Part shown: piece after piece, positions 19,688-61,993 of the stretch
How positions within the stretch are numbered: position 1 is the stretch's first letter
Layout of the letters: every line of letters starts with the position of its first letter
Assembly (NCBI GenBank): GCA_050108155.1
Contig: JBNIDR010000007.1
Coordinates: forward strand, 4,592 to 68,591
Source of the DNA: Candidatus Bathyarchaeia archaeon
GTDB taxonomy: Archaea; Thermoproteota; Bathyarchaeia; Bathyarchaeales; Bathycorpusculaceae
Direction: 5' to 3'
Length of the DNA stretch: 64,000 nucleotides
Notes under the pieces: model-generated
Seen by the model: the letters and a program-made list of their open reading frames with translations, nothing else
Told to the model about the DNA's origin: nothing
Database searches by the model: none
Translations under genes and position numbers: made by a program

Positions 19688-20245
19688 TTAAGCGACGGCT
19701 TCTAATACGTTTCTTTCTGCTAGCTGGTCACAGAATATCTTTACTGTTCGCTTAAGCGTGTCCTCATCGCCTACACCAGAACAGATTAGTTTACCTGTTA
19801 AAAAAACAAGAAACGTGGCTTTTCCCATGTTGTAGACAGCTGCTGGAAATTTGTCTGGCTCGTAAACCACTTTTTCGAATTGCTTTGTAAACTGCTCCAT
19901 AGATATGGAGGCTCCGTTTATGGAAACAGAGGTTACGAGGTTTTTTACGCTGCATTCAAAATTGCAATTGGTCGAAACCAAACTTTTCTCTTTCAAAATA
20001 TTTAGGAACGTGCGGGTTGCTTCTTTGCCTCTTATCTCAGATTTTGTTCCAGTGCAGACGAATTTTCCATTTCTAAAAAGCAAAAAAGTTGCTGGTGAAA
20101 GTTTGGGTTTGAATGATAAACCGGGAAATCTTCTCCAATTGCATTTAGATCCATCTAATTTTGAATGTGCAGCATTGAGGTCGATAGCTTCACTGAAGGC
20201 TCCAGTCATTACGACATTCTGTATTGTAATCTCAACTTTAAACAA
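19688..20245 (-). CDS. tbp: TATA-box-binding protein (divergent copy)
   Basis: Two TBP repeats: IQNVV..DL..RRFPGLSF..ATFLLFRNGKFVCTG and VKNLV..YEPDKFPAAVY..TFLVFLTGKLICSG. Confidence 0.9.
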   Translation of the reverse strand: MFKVEITIQNVVMTGAFSEAIDLNAAHSKLDGSKCNWRRFPGLSFKPKLSPATFLLFRNGKFVCTGTKSEIRGKEATRTFLNILKEKSLVSTNCNFECSVKNLVTSVSINGASISMEQFTKQFEKVVYEPDKFPAAVYNMGKATFLVFLTGKLICSGVGDEDTLKRTVKIFCDQLAERNVLEAVA

Positions 20246-26998: not shown

Positions 26999-28295
26999 AT
27001 GGATGTTAGCGGCATAAAGAATGACATTCGAGACATTAGGATCTTTTCGGGCAGATATTTTCCCTTTATTGTCATTCCGTTGAGCTATGCAAGAATTATA
27101 GCATCTGAGCAGGTACCTACCGCAGGCGTTGACGAAAAGGGCAGAATAGTTGTTAATCCTAACTGGTGGAGTACGCTAAATGTCGAGTCAAAACGGTATG
27201 CGATGATTCATGAATGTTTGCATCTGGTTCTTTGTCACCCTTTCAGAGCAAGAGGTTTTAGCCTAATGGTCTACAATATCTGCGCTGATGGCAAGGTTAA
27301 CTATGCGATAAATGAGGCAAACGTGGCAGGTGTCACTTTCCAAGGTGATGGTTTAGTGACATTGAACTCTCTTGCAACCATAACAAAGCTTCAAGTTGAA
27401 GATTTACGCAAGATGAGCACAGAAGAAATAGTTCGAATTATAGAAAACTCACAAGCTTCAACCCCAATCGAGGAACAAACAACCCAGGAAAGCCAGAATA
27501 ATTCAAAAGGCACCCCAAATTTCGGTGATGACTTGCTTAAGGGACAAGTTGATGGAGAAATCATCCAGAATGGAGAGCGCGCACTTAGCGGGTCCTTAAC
27601 TGAGGAAGAGCTTAAACAGGCATGGAAACAACTCTGCGAAAAAGCCAAAGCTTTTGCTAAGCAAGCTGGAACATTACCGGCATCCCTTGAACGAATCGTT
27701 GATGAGGTACTGGAGGTTAAACCTCCATGGCAGACAACCCTCCGCTTCGGCTTACGCAACAGTTCACTCTTTGACTCAAGCTTTGCATATCCAAACCGTA
27801 AAAACGACGACCTGCCCGGACCAATAGGCTACTCCAGCACTGTCTGGTGCTTGGTGGATAGACAACCAAAGTCAATTCTGAAGACTTTTTGCCCCACACA
27901 CAAGTGGAAGCATCGGACAAGACGAGTTACAACACTTTTTAGGAATAGCCAAACATGAAGCACGAAACGCTTCTCTCCGAGTAGTCGCTTGGGATGCCCA
28001 GGCTTACGATACGCTGAAAGCTGAAAGACCAAGCGAAGTCGCACGCAAGATAGCATCAAAAATGAAGGGCGGCGGCGGAACGGTATGTCTTCCTGCGCTA
28101 CAAAGGGTTCACAAGCTCATGAATGCTGGCGATGCGGTAATTATGCTCACAGACGGAGACATCTTCGACACAGAAAAAGAAGAGACCCAAGGATGGTTCC
28201 GCAGAGTTGCAGATAAAGCAGGTTTTGCCCTGATTGGCTATACCCATAAGCCTGTCGAGGTGCCTGGCTTCACTAAAGCATTCATAGAACTGTAA
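26999..28295 (+). CDS. DUF2201-type metallopeptidase plus vWA protein; predicted spliced, join(26999..27859,27900..28295), 418 aa
   Basis: HECLH zinc motif; after removing 27860-27899 the frame reads VWCLVDTSGSIGQDEL..KGGGGT..MLTDGD (complete MIDAS); explains split ORFs 26909-27958 and 28062-28295. Confidence 0.85.
27860..27899 (+). other. Predicted 40-nt BHB intron in a protein-coding gene
   Basis: Outer UGCUUG/CAAGUG, central GUGG/CCAC, 3-nt bulges AUA and ACA, intron stem GACAA/UUGCC plus AAAGUC/GACUUU. Confidence 0.85.
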
Positions 28296-35851: not shown

Positions 35852-36048
35852 TGGCTAAACGTAAACCACGCTTTACTGTGGCTTGGAAAGAAAACTACCG
35901 AATTACCAGTATACCTGCTGACACACCAGAAGAAGCCATTGAAAAAGCCAAAAACCTAATCGTAACAAGAAGAAACCAAGGAGAATCAACCGATACCTAC
36001 GATTTTGTGGCTTCCGGAGAAGAAAACAACAGAGGTGAACAACTATGA
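35851..36048 (+). CDS. Small hypothetical protein
   Basis: Coupled on both sides by stop/start overlaps. Confidence 0.5.
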   Translation: MAKRKPRFTVAWKENYRITSIPADTPEEAIEKAKNLIVTRRNQGESTDTYDFVASGEENNRGEQL

Positions 36049-37580
36049 GTTTCGAGGATGTCTCTCAAGCGATGAATAAGCTTGTCGCAACAGTTACAGA
36101 TGTTTATCGGGGCTATTGGCAGTACGCAATGGTCGAAACAATCTTTTGCGGACTCCTAATAGGTGAGCCAGTGTTGCTCATCGGCTCTCATGGCGTAATG
36201 AAAACAAGCATGGCAAACTTTGTCGGAACCCTCTTCGATAAACCTGTAGCAACAATAAAAAACAAGGTCCACTCAAGGAATAGCTTGGAAAAATGGCTCG
36301 AAGATTTAGCTTCTCAACTCAAGATAGACCCAGAAAAGCTAACAAAGAACCTAATTGACGGCATCGACACTCAATACGAGCAGACAACAGACGACCTAAC
36401 TGTGACTATAGAAATCGATTTAGTAAAATATTCCCTTGCAGAAAAACTCGCAAAACCAGCTAGAAAGCCAATCAAAGTATTTACTATGCAAGTCAACGAC
36501 CAAATGGACCCCGAAGATCTACTAGGCTATGGCGTAGACCACCCGACCCTTTTAGGATTAAAGCCACCCCATGCGGTTAAATCAGGAAGAGTTGCAGGCG
36601 CCGACTACGTTGTTTTAGATGAAATCTTTGGGGCCACACGTCTGCTTTCCAAGTTGCATCATGTGCTAAATGAAAAAGTTATCGATACCACCGTTGGGTG
36701 CGTTGAGACTAAACCGTTGGGGATAATGCTGTGCACTAATCCGCTAAACGACTTCTATCAAACCAACCTAAAAATCATCAACGCCGCGACGACAGACAGA
36801 TACGCTCTGTCGGCTAGGGGTCTTCCCCCAAGCTCCCAGGAAATCCTGTTTATGTCTGAGCGATGGAAGCACATAAAACTGAAGAAAACCGCGCCCATAG
36901 AACTCATCTATGAAGCAAGAAAACTTGTAGAAGGAGTAAAAATCCCTGAAGAATACATGGTTTTCAGTCTCGGTTTAATAAGCCACCTAAGCAGATGCTA
37001 CTTCAGCGTTTCAACCGGAACAAGAGCAGAAGAAAGCAAGGACCCGTTCGAGGCTGAAAGAGACTGCTCACTCTGCATTTACGGCCAAAATTATCCCTGT
37101 GGATTAGCTAACGTCGGTAAGGTAAGGACCATAGTGAGGCTTCAGCAAACGATCAAGACACATGCGCTACTGAATATGAGAAAAGAAGCTGACGAATCGG
37201 ACCTTGCTTTTGCTCTACTCCATGTTCTTCCACATCGGCTCTCATGGAACAACAACGAATTCTTAGCTGAACAAGGCAGCATATTCACAGCCACCAAAAC
37301 GCTAGTAGAGAAATACGCAAATATTTTCACTTCTCAACAAGCGCAAATAGCCAAAGTTGAAGGACTCATAAAAAGACCAAACGCTAAAGATGCAGCCGAA
37401 CTTAAAACCGCCTTCAGGGATGCACCCATTGCAAGAGCAATACTAGATGAAGTGGTAGACATGATGAAAGAATCAGCAAAGAAGAAAGGAGACACTACAA
37501 CACTTGAAGCTCTAGAATCCAAACTAAACATTGAAAACGCCATAAAAACACTAAAAACCAAACACAACACGGCTTCCTAA
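36045..37580 (+). CDS. MoxR-family AAA+ ATPase
   Basis: GSHGVMKT, VVLDEIF, CTNP, ATTDRY. Confidence 0.8.
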   Translation: MSFEDVSQAMNKLVATVTDVYRGYWQYAMVETIFCGLLIGEPVLLIGSHGVMKTSMANFVGTLFDKPVATIKNKVHSRNSLEKWLEDLASQLKIDPEKLTKNLIDGIDTQYEQTTDDLTVTIEIDLVKYSLAEKLAKPARKPIKVFTMQVNDQMDPEDLLGYGVDHPTLLGLKPPHAVKSGRVAGADYVVLDEIFGATRLLSKLHHVLNEKVIDTTVGCVETKPLGIMLCTNPLNDFYQTNLKIINAATTDRYALSARGLPPSSQEILFMSERWKHIKLKKTAPIELIYEARKLVEGVKIPEEYMVFSLGLISHLSRCYFSVSTGTRAEESKDPFEAERDCSLCIYGQNYPCGLANVGKVRTIVRLQQTIKTHALLNMRKEADESDLAFALLHVLPHRLSWNNNEFLAEQGSIFTATKTLVEKYANIFTSQQAQIAKVEGLIKRPNAKDAAELKTAFRDAPIARAILDEVVDMMKESAKKKGDTTTLEALESKLNIENAIKTLKTKHNTAS

Positions 37581-37643
37581 CAGACTACGCCCATTACAGT
37601 TAGGACTCGACATTTGAAAATTCATTTCTTAGAGGTGAACTAA

Positions 37644-39179
37644 ATGAATAGAGCACTCTATGGAGCATTTAACACCGTTCAGAGCTCTTTTACGCCTGTA
37701 CCACCACCCTTAAAGCTCCAAGTCGACAAGAAAGCCCCAACATTCTCAGTGAATCTATCTCAGATGCTTGTAACCGCTCCAAAATACTGGAACGAACTCA
37801 AATTCTTCAAGGAACTTCTTGGGCATGAAACAAAGCATGCAAGTTCAGACGGTCTTCCCTACACCTATATTAACGCTCTGCGGCATGAAGCAAAAGTCAT
37901 GAGCGAGTTGAATATCAACCTTGGAATGGCTGGTGGCCTTTTGAACATAGTTTACGATGCAGTAGTGGATTTGAGAGTTTCAAAAGAAGGATTAAACGCA
38001 AAAAGCATGTGCATTGAGTGGCTCGACCGATTTCCAATAGACGCCAAAGCTGAAGGATCAAGCTATCATCTGCTCCAGATTATTTACAAAGACTTCTTCG
38101 AAACCCAGCTTAAGGTAACTCAATATGAGCGAGAGCTGAGGCAAAGTTTGGATTATGAAAAACTCAAAAAAATACTAAAAATGTTAGCGCTAAGCACAGC
38201 AAATAATGATCAACAGACCAATGAACTCGTAGTTATAGCAGCCGGATTAGTGGCGCAGCTTTCAAGACCTGAACCGCCCCAAAAGGGAAGGCAGTCAGGG
38301 GATGTTGACTTTGACAGAGGCGACGCGCAGGTTAGATCAGATGCGGCTGAGATCGGTACAAACGCAGGTCTAAACAATCAGCAACTTGCTGAGCTCATGG
38401 GTGTAACAGAAGATGAGCTTGATGAGGCATTGAAAAGGGCATCTGAAGACAAAGTTAGAGCGGCATTGTGGACAACACTGTTGGGTTTCAAAGGTCTTTT
38501 CTCGAGCAAATCCGCACTAGACATACAAGAACCAGCTTGCAAGAGATGGAAACCGTATTCAAAGCGACTGGATCCTTCAAGCACTATCAAATCACCAGAC
38601 GACCCCCGAAAATGGCGTGAGCAAAACCTTGCGACGACATTGACAATCGAATCGGAAGGAGAATCAGGGGGCTTCACAAAGCTCATAATACTGATCGACT
38701 GCTCAGGAAGCACCATAAAACCTTATGGTAGCAAAACGGTTTTGGGCTATATCAAAGATGCCGCCTATAGCCTCATAGCTTACGCCAAAAAGCTCAACCT
38801 TCCAGTGGCTTCAATCGGGTTTAGCAGTAACGCTTGGATCATAGCCAACGAATCAAAAGACTACCTCAAACACGCTCGACAGGTTTTCATGCTAAAACCA
38901 CTTGGAACAACAAAACTTGGAAACGCAGTACAACTAACAGCACGGCTTAGACCTGACAGAGCCCTTATCGCCCTGCTAACGGATGGATATGTAGCCCCTG
39001 AAGATCTTTTGCAGCTTTCTGAACAAACACAGGCAAACAAGGTCATAGCAGCCATTGTCAGCGTAGAAGCAGAGGGTGTAGAAAACATGAAAGCAGTCTC
39101 AAAAAGAGCTGACCTATTTGAAGTCAGGCCGGATAAAACCGGCAAAACAATAATCTCAATGCTGCCAAAGTCCACTTAA
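37644..39179 (+). CDS. vWA (MIDAS) domain protein
   Basis: ILIDCSGS..GTT..LLTDG. Confidence 0.8.
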   Translation: MNRALYGAFNTVQSSFTPVPPPLKLQVDKKAPTFSVNLSQMLVTAPKYWNELKFFKELLGHETKHASSDGLPYTYINALRHEAKVMSELNINLGMAGGLLNIVYDAVVDLRVSKEGLNAKSMCIEWLDRFPIDAKAEGSSYHLLQIIYKDFFETQLKVTQYERELRQSLDYEKLKKILKMLALSTANNDQQTNELVVIAAGLVAQLSRPEPPQKGRQSGDVDFDRGDAQVRSDAAEIGTNAGLNNQQLAELMGVTEDELDEALKRASEDKVRAALWTTLLGFKGLFSSKSALDIQEPACKRWKPYSKRLDPSSTIKSPDDPRKWREQNLATTLTIESEGESGGFTKLIILIDCSGSTIKPYGSKTVLGYIKDAAYSLIAYAKKLNLPVASIGFSSNAWIIANESKDYLKHARQVFMLKPLGTTKLGNAVQLTARLRPDRALIALLTDGYVAPEDLLQLSEQTQANKVIAAIVSVEAEGVENMKAVSKRADLFEVRPDKTGKTIISMLPKST

Positions 39180-58445: not shown

Positions 58446-60050
58446 ATGGACTTTAACATAAAGCAAATTGACCTCAAGCTTGTAGACCTCAAACTTAAGC
58501 TGCAACAGATACTGCAACAATTTTACAAGACTAAGAAAGTTACCCCAACAAATTTGCGGTTCAAGGCAGAACCTTTGATTGCTGCATTTCAGGGTGAAAT
58601 CTTAAACAAGTATACGGTTGATCAAGCTACTGTTTTCATTGTTGATCAGGATGGTAAAGGATTATACATCGTTAGCGAGCCAGAGATGAATCCTGAAGAG
58701 CAACGAGTTTACAGCCTATTGATGGAAAATCTCTTTTTTACACTAAAACCGCTAACGAAAATGGAGGATCCTCTGAAATATGTTGAAGGTTTCATGTGGG
58801 ATGCCGCCCAAGAACTTGGCATCGTTGGAGAGGTCCAGAAAAGTTTTCAGAAAATCCGTTATTTCGTTATTCGCGACGCTTTCGGTTACGGTCCGATACA
58901 TATACCCATGAACGATCCCCAAGTAGAGGAGGTATCCTGCACTAGCTACGGCAACCCTATAACTGTAATTCATAGACAGCTCTCAGAATACGATTGGCTG
59001 CAAACAAACATCTCATTTTCAAATGAAGATATCCTTAGAAATTTTGTGCAAAAACTCGCTCAGAGAACGGGACACAGTGTAACAGTAGCGACTCCTTGGA
59101 CCGACGCCATGACCAAAGAAGGACACAGGCTAGCTGTTACTTTTGCGGGCGAGGTTACACTTCCCGGCTCAACTTTTTGCATAAGAAAGTTTCCAGAGGC
59201 GCCCTTCAGCATGGCTCATTTGTTGCAATACAAAACCTTAACGCCTCTTATGGCGGCATACTTCTGGCTTTTAACGGAATACAAAGGCTACGTTATGGTT
59301 CTCGGTCCGATGGGTAGTGGCAAGACTTCGTTCCTTAACTCTTTGCTGACAATGACTGATCCAACACTAAAAATCGCTAGCATCGAAGACACAAACGAAG
59401 TTAGAATTCCACATTCAGGTTGGCAACGTTTCAAGGCAAGACACACCTACAGCATAACCGAATCCAAGTACGATGTCGGCCTCTTCGACCTAGTAAAACT
59501 AAGCCTTAGGTATAGGCCAGACTACATCGTCGTAGGAGAGATTCGAGGAGAAGAAATCCAAGCGTTAACCCAAGCCGCTTCACTTGGTCACGGTGCGCTA
59601 TGCACTTTCCACGCCGAAAGCCCAGAAGCAGCGCTCGTTCGGATGCGCAGTCCCCCCATGGAAGTTAGCGAAGGCGGACTAATGCTCATTTGGTGTTTTG
59701 CTCTTCTCAATCGTGTCCGAACCTATCAAGGAAAAGTCGCTCGTAGGCTTTTAGACGCCGTTGAGGTTGAGCCTAAAGACGGCAAACTAACGCTAAAACG
59801 TATTTTTTCATGGGATGCCAGAACAGACACATTTACTCCACAAACCGCTGAAGAGGTTGCAAACAAGAGCCCCAAACTTAAAACGATCATGCGACTTACA
59901 GGCTGGACTGAAAAAGAGCTTGTAAACGAATTAGATCGCCGAGCTAACTACCTACAATCAGCCGTAGACGAAGGCAAGTTAGAGTTCGCTGAGTTTTCTG
60001 AAGCAATTAGAAAATTCTATGTTTCTAGCCGGAGGCATGAGAGTAATTGA
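58446..60050 (+). CDS. Type II/IV secretion ATPase (ArlI/CpaF/VirB11 family)
   Basis: GPMGSGKT, SIEDTNE, RPDYIVVGEIRG, TFHAE. Confidence 0.92.
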   Translation: MDFNIKQIDLKLVDLKLKLQQILQQFYKTKKVTPTNLRFKAEPLIAAFQGEILNKYTVDQATVFIVDQDGKGLYIVSEPEMNPEEQRVYSLLMENLFFTLKPLTKMEDPLKYVEGFMWDAAQELGIVGEVQKSFQKIRYFVIRDAFGYGPIHIPMNDPQVEEVSCTSYGNPITVIHRQLSEYDWLQTNISFSNEDILRNFVQKLAQRTGHSVTVATPWTDAMTKEGHRLAVTFAGEVTLPGSTFCIRKFPEAPFSMAHLLQYKTLTPLMAAYFWLLTEYKGYVMVLGPMGSGKTSFLNSLLTMTDPTLKIASIEDTNEVRIPHSGWQRFKARHTYSITESKYDVGLFDLVKLSLRYRPDYIVVGEIRGEEIQALTQAASLGHGALCTFHAESPEAALVRMRSPPMEVSEGGLMLIWCFALLNRVRTYQGKVARRLLDAVEVEPKDGKLTLKRIFSWDARTDTFTPQTAEEVANKSPKLKTIMRLTGWTEKELVNELDRRANYLQSAVDEGKLEFAEFSEAIRKFYVSSRRHESN

Positions 60051-61993
60051 AAGCTTTTTTTAACCGATGGCATCGATGGCTAGCTTACGTTAGTTTAGGA
60101 ATCATCGCGGTTTTATGCTTTATATTTTCCAGCATAGCTTTCAGTATTCCGCTTGAAAAATTTGTCTCGTCAACACAAGCCTTTTACGATAGACTGTTTG
60201 CCGCTATCCTGCTTGGTGCTGGGGTAAGCTTAGCCCTACTTATCGCTCTTGACATATTCTCTGTACAGCTACGCAAGTGCGTAGGAAACCTTTTCTCGTC
60301 TGCACCTATCAAACTTCGTCTAAAGCCCCTTTCTGAAACCCAAACTATCGCGTTTATCTCAAAATATGACCGTCTTCAAAAGTTTGCCGAGCGAACAAGC
60401 CAAAGCTTAGCAAAAGACGTAATCAAGGCAAACGAAAACCTAAGCCCCTACAAGCTTGCAGCAAAAAGCCTATTCTATACAATAATTACTTTCTTTATTT
60501 GCACGCCTTCAGCAGTCATCTTGGCAATAGCAGTTAACCCTATTTTGTTAGTGATTGTCTTAGTCCCGCTTGTACCTCTTGTTTATCCCCATCTGAAGCT
60601 AAGGAGCGCAACTGGTGACCGCAAAAGGGCGGTAGACGACGAGTTGCCTTTTTTTGCAATGTACGCGGACATTCTGCAAAGTGTAGGTGTCAATCTTTAC
60701 GATGCGCTTCAGCAGTCAATAGGCAAGGGCGTGTTCAAACAGATTGAAAAAGATGCTTTGATGGTTAAACGTAATGTGGAGTTTTTCTTTCGCAGCCCTG
60801 TTGAGGCGCTCGAAGAAGTCGGCAAGATGCATCCTAATGATAAGATGAAAACTTTGCTTTTGGGATACACAAGCGAATGGAGAAGCGGCGGTGACTTAAT
60901 CAAGTATCTGGAAGCCAAAGCAGATGATTCGCTTAAAGATATGAGTTTTAAATGGAAAAACTATGCTGAACACGCCTCTGATATCGGAGAAACGATTGTT
61001 AGTCTTCTTTTTGTGCTTCCATTAATGATCTTGATGTCAGCCTTCATTTTTCCCAGTCAAGCCCTAACTTTAGTGGCAATAGTCTCATCAACAGCAGTAC
61101 CCTTAGTGACTGTAGGGGTTTTTGGCTGGCTCAATGCCCAACAACCCAAGACATACGATAATCTGACGGGTAATCTTAAGCTCAGTCTCTTAGCGGGCGC
61201 TATTGCGTTGCCTTCGACGGCTCTTTTAGGAATCCCCCTTTGGTTATGCATTGCTGTCACTTTAGCTGCAGCTTCCACATTCTATGGCGCTTCGATTTTT
61301 CTCCAGCTCAGGGAAAACCGTATGCTTGAAAAGGCGTTGCCACAGTTTCTACGCGATATTACTGAGTATAGAAAAATGGGCTATGATATAACACAAGCTA
61401 TCCTCAAAATATCGGATGAAAACACCTACAATGCTGCTTTCGATGGTTTGTTAAGGGCCGTAGCAAGACAAATGAAGTTAGGCTTGCGTATGGCAGAAGT
61501 GGATGTGCCGACGCGCAGTTGGCTTACCAAAATGAGCTTCTTTCTGCTTACCCAGATTACAGAGTCTGGTGGTGGGACTCCCAGCAGTATGGAAAAGCTC
61601 ATGGATTTCATCAATCAAGTTGTAAGGACTAAGCGCGAAACCGCACAAGGTATGCGTCTGTATCAGGTATTAAGCATTTTTACGCCCATTGGTTTAAGCT
61701 TGATTACAGCTTTGATGTTCACGCTCATGACTGCATTTGCCTCTGCGGTTGCTCCAGGTTCTACTGCGGGCTTAATAGGCTCAATCGCTCAGATTCCTCA
61801 GGGCCTCATAGATATGAGTTATCTGTTGGTTTTGACGTCGTCAACTTGCATAGCTCTGTTAACAACTAAGACTGTTGAGTTGACTGCCAAAAACACGCTA
61901 TGGATAACCGTAAACATGGCCTTAGCCGCAGGATCAATAGCTCTCTCAGTACAACTAGCGACACTTCTGCTAAGCGCCTTTAATGGATTTTGA
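60047..61993 (+). CDS. TadC/ArlJ-like pilus platform membrane protein
   Basis: Two T2SSF-like repeats (DELPFFA.., ALPQFLRDI..); follows the ATPase. Confidence 0.82.
   Translation: MKAFFNRWHRWLAYVSLGIIAVLCFIFSSIAFSIPLEKFVSSTQAFYDRLFAAILLGAGVSLALLIALDIFSVQLRKCVGNLFSSAPIKLRLKPLSETQTIAFISKYDRLQKFAERTSQSLAKDVIKANENLSPYKLAAKSLFYTIITFFICTPSAVILAIAVNPILLVIVLVPLVPLVYPHLKLRSATGDRKRAVDDELPFFAMYADILQSVGVNLYDALQQSIGKGVFKQIEKDALMVKRNVEFFFRSPVEALEEVGKMHPNDKMKTLLLGYTSEWRSGGDLIKYLEAKADDSLKDMSFKWKNYAEHASDIGETIVSLLFVLPLMILMSAFIFPSQALTLVAIVSSTAVPLVTVGVFGWLNAQQPKTYDNLTGNLKLSLLAGAIALPSTALLGIPLWLCIAVTLAAASTFYGASIFLQLRENRMLEKALPQFLRDITEYRKMGYDITQAILKISDENTYNAAFDGLLRAVARQMKLGLRMAEVDVPTRSWLTKMSFFLLTQITESGGGTPSSMEKLMDFINQVVRTKRETAQGMRLYQVLSIFTPIGLSLITALMFTLMTAFASAVAPGSTAGLIGSIAQIPQGLIDMSYLLVLTSSTCIALLTTKTVELTAKNTLWITVNMALAAGSIALSVQLATLLLSAFNGF

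Follow-up and report, generated by a model that had tools for sequence, protein, structure and literature searches.

A predicted bulge-helix-bulge mRNA intron within the DxSxS motif of a vWA-like gene from Bathyarchaeia

The stretch analysed here, called the window below, comprises 64,000 nucleotides (nt) of contig JBNIDR010000007.1 from a Candidatus Bathyarchaeia archaeon (assembly GCA_050108155.1). In it, a gene encoding a protein with a DUF2201_N and a von Willebrand factor A (vWA)-like domain is interrupted by a 40-nt insert at 27860-27899, which we interpret as a putative bulge-helix-bulge (BHB) intron. The insert sits in phase 0 between Asp287 and Thr288 of the DxSxS motif, an element of the metal ion-dependent adhesion site (MIDAS). 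Upstream of the break the reading frame is open from GTG 26909, with ATG 26999 as its likely start, which agrees with homologs that begin MDV(T/S)GIK, and it terminates at 27956-58; the frame beyond the break stays open as far as the TAA at 28293-95. Excision of the insert joins GTGGAT to ACAAGT and gives an open reading frame (ORF) of 418 amino acids (aa), from ATG 26999 to TAA 28295. The predicted spliced junction sequence is GGTGGAT followed directly by ACAAGTGG, and the predicted junction peptide of the spliced product is VWCLVDTSGSIGQDELQHFLGIAK. The junction is ambiguous by one nucleotide (A27860 = A27900), and the product is identical either way.

The joined ORF was recognised by two Pfam models, DUF2201_N (3.8e-22) and PF09967 (DUF2201/VWA-like; 1.3e-8), the latter above cut-off and with a match that spans the junction. 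The HExxH motif of the DUF2201_N domain reads IHECLH. Residues invariant among the homologs are D287, S289, G290, S291, G345-347 (GGGGT348), T348 and D372/D377, which constitute the DxSxS-T-D set of a MIDAS. In an AlphaFold2 model of the intronless homolog P0001 (predicted local distance difference test score 84.6) the Asp of DxSxS lies at the end of strand β1, and in a Foldseek search the C-terminal domain of this model matched vWA/MIDAS domains from the PDB with a probability of 1.0 and target-normalised TM-scores of up to 0.56. Judged by the profile match, the invariant residues and the modelled fold, the C-terminal part is a vWA-like domain with a predicted MIDAS.

At the RNA level the insert and its flanks can be drawn in the canonical layout of tRNA introns (hBHBh′, with outer helix h, central helix H and inner helix h′; Table 1): the 5′ side runs through outer helix, central helix, bulge and inner helix, and the 3′ side through inner helix, central helix, bulge and outer helix. 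The outer helix has 6 base pairs (bp), two of them G-U. The predicted cuts (AU^A and AC^A) follow the rule that cleavage occurs behind the second bulge base on either side, which also reproduces the known junctions of the 40-nt intron in the host tRNA-Ser(CGA). A previous reading made from the letters of the window (the sequence-only reading) had described the insert as frameshifting the gene, the pairing around it as canonical hBHBh′, and these two cuts as restoring the frame, the motif V-D-T-S-G-S and a 418-aa protein. The sequence and frames are as it described, all helices and bulges can be read directly at 27848-27906, and the restored protein is borne out by the joined ORF and the Pfam match across the junction. 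In the 2.55-Mb host genome, however, 22,848 instances of the loose hBHBh′ pattern were counted when all lengths of 15-120 nt were allowed, a rate of 0.0045 per position, and the chance rate at one fixed pair of cut sites is about 4e-5. Because the loose pattern is so frequent, the motif by itself says little, and the case rests on the comparison with homologs.

A protein search returned 122 relatives, and DNA was retrieved for these and for about 80 metagenome loci. Most of the relatives are 405-445 aa long with an unbroken (I/V)D(T/C)SGS motif, several end right after LVDR, and one, P0002, has 17 additional residues between VD and TSGS. The sequence-only reading had pointed to homologs as a source of intronless alleles, and about 75 such loci were found, in which the Asp and Thr/Cys codons adjoin directly. 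Seven distinct intron alleles, 57-85% identical at the aa level, carry inserts at one common codon boundary. The insert measures 40 nt in the window allele and in L001/L012 (a Bathyarchaeia metagenome-assembled genome, GCA_964427115, present in four assemblies), 51 nt in L004, 31 nt in L006, and 32 nt in L005, in L007/L008/L065 and in L009/L010; its ends, AGACA and UGUCCCACA, are common to the alleles. Cutting after the second bulge base gives the correct frame and VDTSGS in all seven. In tblastn, two high-scoring segment pairs in different frames that meet at residues 287/288 were seen in the intron-bearing loci only. With four insert lengths and always the exact VD/TSGS junction, an assembly error is therefore excluded. 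Gene callers treat the alleles in different ways: the 51-nt variant (L004:3865-3915, on an SRR14802572 contig) is in frame and stop-free and is annotated as one protein of 438 aa in which RQQAKSQNQKSILAVPH adds 17 spurious residues to the MIDAS loop, and each of the other intron alleles is split into a 'peptidase' of 292-335 aa and an orphan of 77-119 aa.

The insert lengths also bear on the alternative that no splicing takes place and that the two parts are either connected by recoding (ribosomal frameshifting or translational bypass) or made separately as halves that then assemble. Lengths of 40, 51, 32 and 31 nt equal 1, 0, 2 and 1 mod 3, and the shifts needed would accordingly differ among alleles (-1/+2, 0, +1 and -1), so any single recoding mechanism is excluded. 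A hairpin just past the break does resemble the setting of a bypass or frameshift signal, but the take-off and landing codons of a bypass do not match (GAU vs CAC/CAU), and with read-through the invariant DxSxS motif would be split by 10-17 junk residues. As for separate halves, clade B has an in-frame Met about 13 codons past the junction (HFMGIAK); in the window, however, the earliest in-frame ATG, GTG or TTG of exon 2 is at 28062, 54 codons past the junction, yet these 54 codons rank among the most conserved, and the break falls within strand β1 and the MIDAS loop. Since exon 2 is conserved and its first start lies so far downstream, both exons must form one reading frame, and we consider expression by recoding or as two halves exceedingly improbable.

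Selection on exon 2 was estimated among the intron alleles. The ratio of nonsynonymous to synonymous divergence (dN/dS) is 0.03-0.2, with synonymous sites saturated between clades (dS >1), and the constraint is at least equal to that on exon 1. Seven diverged alleles keep both exons open, which is hard to reconcile with a decaying pseudogene, that is, a gene disrupted by a small hairpin insert whose BHB-like fold is coincidental. Such decay would fit the accessory nature of the gene (3/61 genomes of the genus), the damage in other copies of the family (one truncated, one frameshifted, one with an in-frame TAA) and a folding energy that is not exceptional; it would leave the invariably exact junction at four insert lengths, and a pattern with the low chance rate at fixed sites given above, to coincidence. 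We regard a pseudogene as extremely unlikely.

The sequence-only reading had made its case depend on homologous inserts conserving the BHB geometry, and this they do in part. The exon GUGG, the intron CCAC, the 5′ bulge A(U/C)A and the 3′ A(C/U)A are retained in 7/7 alleles; the 3′ side is canonical in the window allele, L001 and L004, but relaxed (a 7-nt loop or a 2-bp helix) in the clade with inserts of 31-32 nt. The inner helix is GACAA/UUGUC in L001 and GACAGCAAG/CUUGCUGUC in L004. In the short clade GACA/UGUC precedes either CAGUU/AACUG or AUAGU/ACUGU, and in L006 GGU/GUC precedes AACAG/CUGUU. In the outer helix of the relatives, one-sided changes (G-U to G-C, U-A to U-G) preserve pairing, and clade B has a different outer helix, GCUUCUG/CGGAAGC. 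The unconstrained minimum free energy (MFE) fold of L001 is the exact canonical hBHBh′, and in L004 the canonical fold lies within 1 kcal/mol of the MFE. For the 32-nt inserts of L005, L007 and L009 the MFE fold retains the 5′ bulge, the 4-bp helix and the hairpin, and the 31-nt insert of L006 adopts the relaxed fold under BHB constraint only (-15.1 vs a free MFE of -16.7 kcal/mol). Counting pairs across the alleles, we found one double compensatory change from A-U to G-C and several G-U/G-C switches, and unrelated apical stems still pair; covariation in the predicted helices is qualitatively supportive but statistically not significant.

The maximum-likelihood tree of the gene has the form L004, (WIN, L001, ((L005, L006, L007, L009), (L020, L021, L031, L033))), where WIN is the window allele and the last four are intronless. 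The intron alleles are therefore a grade that encloses one intronless subclade, and their monophyly was rejected by the approximately unbiased (AU) test (p = 0.0003). The simplest history would be one gain of the intron in the gene family, followed by one precise loss in one subclade. Among the three genomes of the host genus that carry the gene, the intron is present in two, at 40 nt and at 32 nt, and absent from the third. The intronless copy (G430:C10:11023-12264, L103) has one in-frame TAA elsewhere in its ORF. Homology of L100:1867-3036 (P0078) ends after GIAKHEA with no C-terminal part downstream, pointing to a rearrangement or truncation, and L068 has a simple frameshift at residues 186/187. 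These last two, together with the gene remnant P0079/L101, were considered as second intron sites in the family and rejected.

The host genome encodes the enzymes that such an intron would call for, with two genes of PF01974 (the tRNA splicing endonuclease EndA) and one of PF01139 (the ligase RtcB). The two EndA genes map to C3:132478-132723 on the minus strand and C3:36117-36371 on the plus strand. EndA paralog 1 retains the catalytic His (GVEHAPY), and its best PDB matches are 3p1z_B, 2cv8_A and 3ajv_B (E ~1e-41), which we take to be crenarchaeal catalytic subunits. Paralog 2 has Thr at the position of the catalytic His (GKDTAPY) and aligns to the N-terminal, non-catalytic repeat of fused-type models. 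From these sequences the pair fits a two-subunit, (αβ)2-like enzyme, a type that has been linked to relaxed motifs and to the splicing of cbf5 pre-mRNA (PMC2738675; PMC5829648). Canonical introns were detected by Aragorn in the host tRNAs for Ser-GGA (25 nt), Ser-CGA (40 nt; C20) and Trp (62 nt). Aragorn also listed tRNAs with very long or oddly placed 'introns' of up to 1391 nt (C3:18248-19727, C25:113854-115058, C24:49473-49833 and others), some of which may be false, and a 'tRNA-Stop(tta)' on C9 that looks like a poor false positive.

The same enzymes could in principle cut the BHB without productive ligation, and the element would then serve as a switch by which cleavage reduces expression or leaves the N-terminal metallopeptidase-like protein as the sole product. 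In Haloferax, EndA does act on an mRNA outside its coding sequence (the 5′ untranslated region (UTR) of HVO_1309; PMC7714728), and truncated exon-1 products would arise in 6/7 alleles. The conservation of exon 2 at the protein level, however, requires its translation in frame with exon 1, RtcB is present in the host, and the tails encoded by the inserts are not conserved between alleles; we consider such a switch very unlikely.

Genome-wide searches were made with the insert as well. A covariance model of the intron (R1) matches the host genome once and has one other match among 401 class-level genomes, the L007 contig; the intron is not a repeated element. A transposon or miniature inverted-repeat transposable element, an intein and a ribozyme-type (group I/II) intron, which would show a target-site duplication with terminal repeats, in-frame Cys and His-Asn splice motifs or a large ribozyme core, were rejected: the insert has no flanking direct repeat longer than 1 nt, is 40 nt long and out of frame, and is present once in the genome. 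Rfam and tRNA scans of the window found nothing. In the host genome a strict-motif screen for broken ORFs bridged by a BHB returned 139 candidates, 44 of them left after a no-start filter; all those inspected were adjacent genes, and no further mRNA intron was found.

The same-site inserts, the selection on exon 2, the preserved pairing, the host enzymes and the tree together argue that the insert is a BHB intron in the vWA-like coding sequence that would be spliced from the mRNA, as the sequence-only reading had proposed with EndA and RtcB as the agents; we give this a probability of about 0.85. Several observations weigh against it. The BHB of the window allele is the weakest of clade A, with one A·C mismatch among the 5 bp of its inner helix GACAA/UUGCC. 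The 76-nt region has a free MFE of -19.2 kcal/mol (z = -0.8) in a non-BHB fold, compared with -14.3 kcal/mol under BHB constraint, and in a 59-nt context the fold as drawn reaches -10.3 vs an MFE of -12.8 kcal/mol; thermodynamics alone do not set this allele apart. In L005, L007 and L009 the clade B outer helix closes a 7-nt loop that contains the 3′ site, a relaxed BHB with a non-canonical bulge. The covariation is not significant, its score being reached by 123/500 shuffles (seven sequences with an invariant core). The L004 allele reads through in frame, so splicing is not strictly needed there. Finally, no near-identical protein of the spliced form was found in the protein collection, which was searched for intronless or transcript-derived twins: in clade A the only proteins above 75% identity are P0011, from the window itself, and P0042 and P0002, which carry the intron, and in clade B none exceeds 72%. 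The viral contigs searched gave two distant relatives only, at 28-29% identity.

If the insert is a BHB intron, its removal may proceed as follows. In the pre-mRNA, GUGG of exon 1 would pair with CCAC of the intron to form the 4-bp central helix, flanked by the two 3-nt bulges AUA and ACA, the outer helix between the exons and the intron hairpin. The two-subunit host endonuclease, composed of one catalytic EndA and one EndA without the catalytic His, would cut between 27859 and 27860 and between 27899 and 27900, and RtcB would ligate the exons to GUG GAU ACA AGU GGA AGC, giving a product of 418 aa whose DxSxS-T-D MIDAS, at the end of strand β1, is intact. We infer these cleavage and ligation steps as well as the subunit architecture of EndA, and the excised intron would probably circularise. 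Unspliced mRNA would yield a 319-aa protein that lacks the vWA domain. It may be speculated, although we think it unlikely, that the intron gates production of this vWA partner through its dependence on a broad-specificity two-subunit EndA and RtcB of the host, as a control of host compatibility or timing for a transferable island, with unspliced mRNA giving only the N-terminal metallopeptidase-like protein, and that reverse splicing or gene conversion carries such introns from one element lineage to another.

A BHB intron is also found in the cbf5 pre-mRNA (Watanabe 2002; Yoshinari 2006). Splicing of cbf5 was shown experimentally for Crenarchaeota, in Desulfurococcales and Sulfolobales, where the introns measure 16-44 nt, have their cut sites between bulge bases two and three, have been gained and lost, and are linked to a hetero-oligomeric EndA (Yokobori 2009, PMC2738675). 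The putative intron described here resembles those of cbf5 in being a short intron (31-51 nt) in a coding sequence, in its BHB or relaxed BHB and cut position, in having some allele lengths divisible by three, in its patchy distribution with gain and loss, and in a host with a two-subunit EndA. It differs in residing in an accessory, island-borne vWA-like gene of Bathyarchaeia, and not in an essential pseudouridine synthase, and in that splicing is here deduced from sequence. In the literature searched, cbf5 is the only archaeal coding-sequence BHB intron with confirmed splicing, along with one case in a 5′ UTR, the HVO_1309 mRNA of Haloferax volcanii (PMC2738675, PMC7714728). HVO_1309 shares with the present case an mRNA as substrate (predicted here) of the tRNA splicing endonuclease, but its intron lies in an untranslated leader and not in a reading frame, and the Haloferax EndA is homodimeric. 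The intron of the host tRNA-Ser(CGA) has the same hBHBh′ layout, the same 3-nt bulges (AG^A and AU^A there; AU^A and AC^A here), the same length and the same cut rule. Unlike in tRNA, the substrate in the window would be a protein-coding mRNA whose exon helices are built from codons (W-C-L-V-D and T-S-G-S) and not from the anticodon stem. The eukaryotic HAC1/XBP1 system, with the nuclease IRE1, a tRNA ligase or RtcB, a twin stem-loop motif and regulation by stress, differs from the vWA-gene intron in these features. Both would be non-spliceosomal, using a protein endonuclease and an RNA ligase, and in both the removal of a short intron shifts the frame (PMC13149111).

What is new is thus the Bathyarchaeia lineage and the accessory, island-borne gene, the predicted mode of action being as in cbf5. 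If spliced, the vWA-like gene would be a second, unrelated coding-sequence case, located in Bathyarchaeia on an accessory and probably transferable island, and expression by the tRNA-splicing machinery would not be a peculiarity of cbf5. It offers a compact testable substrate, an RNA of about 75 nt and two host EndA genes. The intron would also account for a recurrent mis-annotation, in which genes are split into 'peptidase' and orphan or the intron is read as 17 extra residues of the MIDAS loop, and the family documents both gain and precise loss of a predicted BHB intron within one protein family.

Table 1. Positions of the interrupted gene, its predicted RNA fold and neighbouring features in the window.
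Feature	Position	Strand	Remarks
Exon 1	26999-27859	+	codons 1-287; DUF2201_N metallopeptidase-like domain and vWA-like strand β1; ends with Asp287 codon GAT
Intron (predicted)	27860-27899	+	40 nt; the 7 distinct intron alleles have same-site inserts of 31, 32, 40 or 51 nt
Exon 2	27900-28295	+	codons 288-418 and TAA; TSGS and the remaining vWA-like domain including the GGGGT and LTDGD MIDAS elements
Outer helix h, 5′ strand UGCUUG	27848-27853	+	exon 1; pairs with 27901-27906
Central helix H, 5′ strand GUGG	27854-27857	+	exon 1; 4 bp; pairs with CCAC 27894-27897
5′ bulge AUA	27858-27860	+	predicted cut between 27859 and 27860
Inner helix h′ GACAA/UUGCC, apical stem AAAGUC/GACUUU (6 bp) and 9-nt loop	27861-27893	+	
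Central helix H, 3′ strand CCAC	27894-27897	+	intron
3′ bulge ACA	27898-27900	+	predicted cut between 27899 and 27900
Outer helix h, 3′ strand CAAGUG	27901-27906	+	exon 2
P-loop ATPase, 381 aa	25594-26739	+	upstream syntenic partner; PHROG 1297 'ATPase', E = 9e-45
Small conserved ORF, 70 aa	26757-26969	+	between the ATPase and the vWA-like gene
Prepilin peptidase (Peptidase_A24 and Arc_PepC_II), extra TBP, TrwB/VirD4-like ATPase	18907-23276		
Extra TBP gene	19688-20245	-	two TBP repeats
Type II secretion system (T2SS) E/F-like genes	58446-61993		

To the left of about 16 kb the window holds host-like genes (thermosome, pyridoxal phosphate (PLP)-dependent enzyme) at a GC content of about 49%, and from about 16 kb on this drops to about 42-44%. 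Besides the vWA-like gene, the low-GC stretch contains a prepilin peptidase, an extra TBP, a TrwB/VirD4-like coupling ATPase of 838 aa, T2SS E/F-like genes and a radical-SAM protein. Both the vWA-like gene and the ATPase upstream of it match PHROG families (1314 and 1297). The sequence-only reading had assigned the gene to a mobile element; gene content, lower GC, the PHROG matches and the presence in 3/61 genomes speak for this, but no integrase and no element borders were found, and we consider it plausible that the vWA-like gene lies on a mobile or transferable island. The 381-aa gene, which the same reading had called a MoxR ATPase, is an ATPase by its PHROG match, but the MoxR label could not be confirmed, as its matches to Pfam AAA and AAA_5 are below cut-off and neither an NCBIfam nor a PDB match was found. 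It occurs at the corresponding position in L001, L002 and L004-L006, and syntenic counterparts of the small ORF, 70-95 aa long, are present in L002, L003 and L005-L010.

A second pair of ATPase and vWA genes, uninterrupted, was seen further along the same presumed island at 36045-39179 of the window (plus strand), encoding a 511-aa AAA_5/AAA_lid_2 protein and a 511-aa VWA_2 protein.

Within the family of the interrupted gene, an intein of about 365 aa was noted on the metagenome contig Ga0129301_1000959 (L059:1187-3550). Cys is its first residue and His-Asn its last two, with a Cys directly after them; it contains two LAGLIDADG-like motifs and is inserted in the region of the HExxH metallopeptidase motif (AIHEALHV before and CLCHPF after the intein, which starts with C and ends VVHN). 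With this intein and the putative BHB intron, two different intervening elements are therefore found in the two most conserved motifs of the DUF2201_N/vWA-like family.

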